Sequence record: PV340574.1
Direction: 5' to 3' (one strand)
Length of the DNA stretch: 48,138 bases
Source: Escherichia phage PhiR63_2
Below the pieces are notes generated by a model. The model did not search any database. It was not told the DNA's origin and saw only the letters and a list, made by a program, of their open reading frames with translations. A program made the position numbers and the translations under genes. The first letter of the stretch is position 1, and every line of letters begins with the position of its first letter. Below are positions 13,075-14,039 of this stretch, one piece after another.

Positions 13075-13515
13075 ATGAAAAAACTAACCTTTGAAATTCG
13101 ATCTCCGGCACATCAGCAAAACGCTATTCACGCAGTACAGCAAATCCTTCCAGACCCAACCAAACCAATCGTAGTAACCATTCAGGAACGCAACCGCAGC
13201 TTAGACCAAAACAGGAAGCTATGGGCCTGCTTAGGTGACGTCTCTCGTCAGGTTGAATGGCATGGTCGCTGGCTGGATGCAGAAAGCTGGAAGTGTGTGT
13301 TTACCGCAGCATTAAAGCAGCAGGATGTTGTTCCTAACCTTGCCGGGAATGGCTTTGTGGTAATAGGCCAGTCAACCAGCAGGATGCGTGTAAGCGAATT
13401 TGCGGAGCTATTAGAGCTTATACAGGCATTCGGTACAGAGCGTGGCGTTAAGTGGTCAGACGAAGCGCGACTGGCTCTCGAATGGAAAGCGCGATGGGGA
13501 GATCGGGCTGCATGA
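13075..13515 (+). CDS. ninB: NinB recombination protein
   Basis: Translation from MKKLTFEIRSPAHQQ... matches lambda NinB; Shine-Dalgarno GGGAGAGGGAAG before the ATG. Confidence 0.9.
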   Translation: MKKLTFEIRSPAHQQNAIHAVQQILPDPTKPIVVTIQERNRSLDQNRKLWACLGDVSRQVEWHGRWLDAESWKCVFTAALKQQDVVPNLAGNGFVVIGQSTSRMRVSEFAELLELIQAFGTERGVKWSDEARLALEWKARWGDRAA

Positions 13516-14039
13516 CTATCAAATCAAATACGCCAGCACACGACAAGGACTGCTGGCAAACGCCGCTTTGGCTTTTTGATGCACTGGATATTGAGTTTGG
13601 ATTCTGGCTGGATTCGGCAGCGAGCGACAAAAATGCTCTGTGCGCTCACTGGCTAACTGAGGACGACGACGCGCTCAATTCTGAGTGGGTAAGCCACGGT
13701 GCAATCTGGAATAACCCACCGTACAGCAATATCAGGCCGTGGGTGGAAAAAGCCGCTGAGCAGTGTATACAACAGCGACAGACGGTAGTGATGCTTGTGC
13801 CAGAGGATATGTCTGTCGGATGGTTCAGCAAGGCTCTGGAGAGTGTTGACGAAGTTCGTATTATCACTGATGGACGGATTAATTTTATCGAACCATCGAC
13901 AGGGCTGGAGAAGAAGGGAAACAGCAAAGGCTCCATGCTGCTGATTTGGCGACCGTTCATCAGTCCTCGACGGATGTTTACTACCGTATCCAAAGCGGCA
14001 TTGATGGCGATCGGGCAGGGCGTCAGGAGGGCTGCATGA
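13512..14039 (+). CDS. Phage DNA N6-adenine methyltransferase (175 aa)
   Basis: NPPY catalytic motif ([10 protein letters not shown]); ATGA overlap with the ninB stop. Confidence 0.75.

Follow-up and report, generated by a model that had tools for sequence, protein, structure and literature searches.

Relatives of the gene reported here that have an experimental record include the adenine methyltransferases of phages T1 and HP1 and an orphan enzyme, M.Btr190III, from a Bibersteinia trehalosi prophage. T1 Dam (M.EcoT1Dam) is described as GATC-modifying, and M.Btr190III, which is 35% identical to it, methylated GATC with considerable off-target activity when cloned, while its lysogen seemed not to express it (PMC4996451). 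During T1 infection both the adenine methyltransferase activity and the N6-methyladenine (m6A) content of the phage genome go up (PMC3620542), and HP1 Dam is listed among the cloned phage Dam enzymes (PMC7556043). Here we describe a gene of this kind in a 48,138-nucleotide stretch of DNA from Escherichia phage PhiR63_2 (PV340574.1), referred to below as the window, in which it occupies positions 13512-14039 on the plus strand. An initial annotation made from the letters of the window had proposed that its nin region encodes an N6-adenine methyltransferase of the orphan type, and curated family models, the predicted fold and the lack of an endonuclease partner, here or beside orthologues, all bear this out.

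The open reading frame (ORF) is intact, running from an ATG at 13512-13514 to a TGA at 14037-14039 (528 nt, 175 aa plus stop). Against the NCBIfam equivalog model TIGR01712, ‘phage N-6-adenine-methyltransferase’, the encoded protein scored 265.6 bits (cutoff 97.05 bits; E=1.2e-79) over all 165 profile positions (1-165), and against the Pfam model PF05869, ‘Dam’, residues 4-169 scored 219.1 bits (cutoff 28.1 bits; E=3.7e-65) over profile positions 1-167 of 169. E-values of this order place the ORF far beyond chance and, as judged from its sequence, the protein belongs over its full length to the TIGR01712/PF05869 ‘phage Dam’ family. The protein also matches the orphan methyltransferase (oMTase) models of PADLOC and PHROG 111 (phrog_111), ‘DNA methyltransferase’, and its counterpart in the Nissle 1917 prophage is WP_000153286.1. 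A Pfam scan of the protein gave no match to PF02086, PF01555 or PF05063.

Catalytic motif IV of amino-methyltransferases, NPPY (N68-P69-P70-Y71), is read from the sequence at 13713-13724 (+) and shows no variation in 38 orthologues, nor in T1 Dam and HP1 Dam. The initial annotation, which had reported a 175-aa ORF with this motif, is accurate in every detail that can be checked. A second conserved element, LDSAAS (L33-S38; codons at 13608-13625, +), was located from alignments and lies at the end of the first beta strand (strand 31-36 of the predicted model); L33, D34 and A37 are the same in the window protein, T1 Dam and HP1 Dam, and L33, D34 and A36 are the same throughout the 38 orthologues. 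Likewise, all the family-invariant elements are present, namely NPPY 68-71, W15/T17/P18 (W-x-T-P) and L33/D34/A37 (LD-x-AAS), which are invariant with T1 Dam and HP1 Dam and conserved in the 38 orthologues.

T1 Dam (phage T1, 39024-39737) and HP1 orf13 Dam (phage HP1, 9166-9687) also score above the TIGR01712 cutoff, with 238 and 114.5 bits, respectively. The window protein is 33% identical to the former and 38% to the latter, and the three have 38 invariant positions in common, including NPPY, the LDxAAS loop and residues of a hairpin at 120-140. T1 Dam carries a 45-aa N-terminal extension and a 14-aa insertion relative to the window protein. All three are orphan phage genes, but they are found in different genomic slots. 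The tie to M.Btr190III runs through T1 Dam and not through direct sequence comparison; by analogy with these two enzymes, a GATC-like specificity would be expected for the protein described here.

Since a sequence search of the PDB with the window protein returned chance matches only (E 0.3-0.7), a comparison of folds was needed. An AlphaFold2 model built on the 38 orthologues was confident (pLDDT 90.5, pTM 0.88), and the closest solved folds were those of PCIF1, M.TaqI, MmeI and M.BseCI, with approximately 133-150 of the 175 residues aligning to the catalytic domains of proteins that exceed it two- to eightfold in size. According to the model, the protein is a bare class-I (Rossmann-type) S-adenosylmethionine (SAM)-dependent N6-adenine methyltransferase catalytic domain, without a separate target-recognition domain. 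The glycine-rich FxGxG motif is absent and the conserved LD(S/A)AAS loop follows the first strand instead; this is probably the cofactor-binding loop, taking the place of the canonical FxGxG in contact with SAM. NPPY, which follows strand 64-68 of the model, would hold the flipped-out target adenine.

A catalytic domain on its own, as predicted by the model, brings to mind a relaxed or near-nonspecific adenine methyltransferase: because no recognition domain is present, many sequence contexts would be methylated, giving broad anti-restriction protection as with M.EcoGII and Hia5. The significant off-target activity of its family relative M.Btr190III (PMC4996451) is consistent with such behaviour, as is the observation that promiscuity, and silence in the lysogen, are frequent among prophage methyltransferases (PMC4659465; PMC5778455). 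We nevertheless consider it unlikely, though deserving of some weight, because the known nonspecific enzymes come from other families (M.EcoGI and M.EcoGII, beta class, 349 aa; Hia5, alpha class), and because T1 Dam, of the same family, is reported as GATC-modifying (PMC4996451). Furthermore, conservation with T1 Dam and HP1 Dam extends to the 120-140 hairpin, which suggests a recognition element in common with them.

The immediate gene neighbours, identified by Pfam, are NinB, NinE and NinX, with no Type II-style cognate endonuclease gene adjacent. Pfam scans of the 48-kb window, including unannotated ORFs, detected no restriction endonuclease, and when 84 window ORFs were scanned with PADLOC its methyltransferase models matched this protein only, with no restriction endonuclease among the 25 of 32 families listed. 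The RefSeq annotation of the Nissle 1917 prophage (99.7-99.98% identical) contains no endonuclease, and none lies beside the orthologues in Yersinia, Providencia and Pectobacterium. As neither the window nor the surroundings of orthologues from other genera showed a restriction endonuclease, the methyltransferase is an orphan. The initial claim that a cognate restriction enzyme is missing therefore holds within the 48 kb, by PADLOC, Pfam and the Nissle annotation alike, and a neighbouring endonuclease gene, which had been named as one finding that would overturn it, was looked for both in the window and beside orthologues and did not appear.

Phages ev207, ev017 and PhiR57_1 carry the 528-bp gene at 100% identity, and DNA at least 95% identical to it occurs in 243 phage records, many of them Stx1 or Stx2 phages. 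At the same identity it is present in 1,566 of the 5,426 complete E. coli genomes (∼29%), with up to five copies per genome. Homologues detected by tblastn extend to 2,157 of 50,697 phage records, including T1-like Drexlerviridae and Klebsiella and Vibrio phages, and in the protein database the name ‘phage N-6-adenine-methyltransferase’ is borne by clusters that comprise thousands of near-identical proteins. Across Enterobacterales, orthologues are 60-86% identical and NPPY is invariant. The notion that the gene is inactive and persists in the nin region as a mere passenger, which could draw on the textbook fact that nin-region genes are dispensable in lambda and on an upstream IS200 copy that could dampen expression, is hardly credible against a full-length ORF with every family-invariant residue kept, identical copies in the three phages named above and this degree of conservation across the order.

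Being routinely annotated and extremely common, the gene is already known, a point that the initial annotation had not made: it has a name in RefSeq, Pfam, NCBIfam, PHROGs and PADLOC and is among the commonest accessory genes of lambdoid prophages. As a discovery it matters little. Its target sequence, if learned, would aid the reading of E. coli and phage methylomes after prophage induction and would make it easier to foresee which restriction systems are escaped by lambdoid and Stx phages.

Upstream of the gene lies ninB, encoding an Orf-family recombination mediator (13075-13515, +; Pfam NinB 184 bits, and so annotated in Nissle), and the ninB stop (TGA, 13513-13515) overlaps the methyltransferase ATG as ATGA at 13512-13515. 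At the other end the methyltransferase TGA overlaps the ATG of ninE (14036-14212, +; Pfam NinE 140 bits) as ATGA at 14036-14039, and an overlap of the same type, at 14209-14212, joins the ninE stop to the start of a ninX-family gene (14209-14556, +; Pfam Phage_P22_NinX 62 bits), whose start the Nissle annotation puts at 14215. The overlaps with ninB and ninE can be read directly at both ends of the ORF. A GGAG is found 10 nt 5' of the methyltransferase ATG and an AGGAGG 6 nt 5' of that of ninE; these, together with the overlaps, point to translational coupling of the methyltransferase with both neighbours, as proposed initially. RusA and Q follow further downstream of NinX (Pfam), the Q antiterminator gene (15333-15731, +; Pfam Phage_antitermQ 181 bits) marking the downstream end of the ninB-to-Q early operon. 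The RefSeq gene order in Nissle 1917 is identical (ninB-methyltransferase-ninE-ninX-rusA-ylcG-Q). No strong terminator-like site was found in a scan from ninB to Q, and an internal promoter was rejected, with 8 promoter-like sites compared to 13.1 in shuffles.

The position of the gene between ninB and rusA, in a block rich in recombination functions (ninB/orf, rusA), lends some support to a housekeeping or regulatory role in preference to anti-restriction, whereby GATC sites would be kept fully methylated while replication is rapid, to the advantage of the phage in MutH-directed mismatch repair, control of replication or packaging. Regulation of the replication cycle may be the task of many orphan methyltransferases of phages, as with P1 Dam at pac sites (PMC12707154), and the function of phage Dam enzymes is ‘still not well understood’ (PMC7556043). 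The linkage to ninB is not conserved, however. Orthologues at 66-80% identity occupy other early-operon slots: that of Yersinia adjoins an integrase gene and that of Pectobacterium precedes NinF/NinG/Q. T1 and HP1, too, carry their genes elsewhere. Moreover, no regulatory target is backed by direct evidence, and we see a role of this sort as improbable, if not to be dismissed lightly. NinB as an obligate DNA-binding partner was also considered and rejected; as its adjacency is not conserved in T1, HP1, Yersinia and Pectobacterium, it is unlikely to be required.

In Providencia the orthologue sits in a nin-like block, three to four genes upstream of the restriction-alleviation gene Lar. A second methyltransferase, of the 350-aa PF01555 type, follows Q in Providencia prophages. 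The stretches concerned in these prophages are at about 5440-5630 and 8200-8534. One Providencia prophage thus combines two orphan adenine methyltransferases with Lar, as the orthologue, Lar and the post-Q PF01555 enzyme occur together.

In lambda, the genes of the nin operon are delayed-early genes that are silent in the lysogen and are transcribed from pR after N-type antitermination. A tR2-like terminator hairpin lies downstream of ren and upstream of the nin operon (12315-12338, +; terminator scan), with the same hairpin in Nissle, and by analogy with lambda it may work as an N-antiterminated stop. Because it is located in the delayed-early ninB-to-Q operon, the methyltransferase should be silent in the lysogen. 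After induction or infection, N-type antitermination would let transcription from pR pass the tR2-like terminator and the enzyme would be made. It would then methylate replicating phage DNA and, incidentally, the host DNA of the doomed cell before packaging, so that progeny would enter the next host already methylated. The target is most likely GATC or a relaxed set centred on GATC, as for T1 Dam and M.Btr190III, and the benefit most likely escape from those restriction systems that are blocked by this m6A, along with complete methylation of phage DNA that replicates fast. The role proposed initially, protection from restriction by self-methylation, with host DNA affected while the prophage is expressed, is the conventional and, by analogy, the most likely reading; it fits the delayed-early operon, the kinship with T1 Dam and HP1 Dam, and the Providencia orthologue only a few genes from Lar. 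Taken as a whole, we regard it as probable that the gene encodes a small phage-Dam-family DNA m6A methyltransferase that is made delayed-early and methylates phage DNA against restriction at a GATC-like target.

The expression of this particular copy may be modified by an IS200 copy (12345-13051, +; Y1_Tnp 125 bits; tnpA 12489-12947, +) that lies in the T-run of the tR2-like terminator, directly 5' of ninB. The element is not in the otherwise near-identical Nissle 1917 prophage, and the exact ren-IS200-ninB junction was not found in the 5,426 complete E. coli genomes, where the best match covers 90%. Since the terminator scan shows that it brings a further hairpin and T-run immediately ahead of ninB (13029-13047), the insertion may be polar on the ninB-methyltransferase-Q operon.

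Several points weigh against a delayed-early, GATC-like anti-restriction enzyme. The accessible literature yielded no paper with an experiment on the lambdoid nin-region subfamily, and because identity to T1 Dam and HP1 Dam is only 33-38%, specificity cannot be safely transferred from them. Strict GATC methylation would, moreover, be partly redundant, as E. coli already has Dam. The prophage is mildly depleted of GATC (128 sites, observed/expected 0.64) to no greater extent than of several other palindromes, for which reason the frequency of the site gives no signal either way. In this particular prophage the IS200 insert could also lower expression. Finally, there is a precedent for GATC-methyltransferase annotations being wrong on substrate: gp5 of the Stx phage phiPA8 (M.EcoPA8orf6770P; MT-A70, DPPW) was annotated as a GATC DNA methyltransferase and prefers 16S rRNA when bound to PNB-2 (PMC10810198). 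The case shows that annotation can mislead, though gp5 belongs to a different family.

That the window protein is not a DNA enzyme at all but, like this MT-A70-type gp5, methylates RNA such as rRNA or has its substrate set by a partner appears very unlikely. MT-A70 (PF05063) was considered as a family for it and rejected, as the motif is NPPY and not DPPW, there is no PF05063 match, and no partner gene is conserved across genera. In a broader form, the 175-aa, catalytic-domain-only nin-region subfamily might not be a strict GATC ‘Dam’, having instead a relaxed or different adenine specificity or acting on RNA or in dependence on a partner. We hold this to be distinctly unlikely; if true, the standard annotation would be functionally inexact for a gene that about 29% of complete E. 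coli genomes carry.

The window as a whole is a lambdoid prophage integrated at icd, and for most of its length it shows 99.7-99.98% identity to its counterpart in Nissle 1917. Its right edge (47987-48138; left edge, 1-560) carries a 152-bp copy of the 3' end of icd, with 97% identity to that end of icd in the Nissle locus, a site situated immediately to the left of the window's first position. The left arm, int-xis-...-exo-bet-gam-kil (560-6271), is intact here, whereas Nissle 1917 has a truncated integrase and a frameshifted ISEc52 there. At the position of the lambda N antiterminator is an N-like 114-aa ORF (6893-7237, -) with an arginine-rich RRRARRA stretch, where the Nissle RefSeq annotation lists hypothetical proteins only. 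Between this ORF and cI, at the rexAB position, a two-gene insert (7602-8354, - and 8351-8908, -) encodes a DUF1828 protein and one with a weak DUF6978 match. It matches the PADLOC candidate defence system PDC-M24 (component B, E=4.7e-10; component A, E=4.8e-4) and, on these profile matches, may be a prophage-borne anti-phage system. Beyond Q are an OmpC/NmpC-like porin gene (15922-17061, -) and an iss/bor-like lipoprotein gene (near 18794-19132, -), and the sitABCD iron/manganese transporter is encoded at the right end of the prophage (42623-46069, -).

Set beside the better-known adenine methyltransferases, the protein stands apart in architecture. M.TaqI and other gamma-class N6-adenine DNA methyltransferases, as well as PCIF1, are 380-480 aa long with a separate recognition domain and a glycine-rich motif I, whereas the window protein has 175 aa and neither feature. 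With E. coli Dam and T4 Dam (PF02086, alpha class) it has the name ‘Dam’ in common and possibly the product, G(m6A)TC; the MethyltransfD12 layout of those enzymes, in which FxGxG at the N-terminus and DPPY at the C-terminus flank a central recognition domain, is not that of this protein. Nor is that of the beta class of M.EcoGII (PF01555), with some 350 aa and, from N- to C-terminus, the order DPPY, recognition domain, FxGxG, as the window protein is 175 aa long and lacks a PF01555 match. M.EcoGI and M.EcoGII (nonspecific, beta class, 349 aa, DPPY...FxGxG; PMC5778455) and Hia5 (nonspecific, alpha class, DPPY near residue 194; PMC3299994) resemble it in being prophage-borne orphans, silent in lysogens and thought to protect phage DNA, but differ in family and size. 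Identity with M.EcoMIV was ruled out, as that enzyme belongs to PF02086 (PMC4659465), and so was identity with the enzyme of Serratia phage OS31 and phiP27 (PhiOS31_p25/phiP27), a member of another family that is encoded after Q and whose specificity is relaxed. A methyltransferase domain of DIRS retrotransposons is detected by the same profile, PF05869 (PMC3783388); this is a eukaryotic retroelement domain. The nearest counterparts are the lambdoid ‘phage N-6-adenine-methyltransferase’ genes of the WP_000153286.1 type, in ev207, ev017, PhiR57_1, HK140, Sf101 and many Stx1 and Stx2 phages, whose DNA is identical or at least 95% identical and which occupy the same slot between ninB and ninE. 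From these the gene itself is no different, and the sole distinction of the copy in PhiR63_2 is the IS200 element 5' of ninB.
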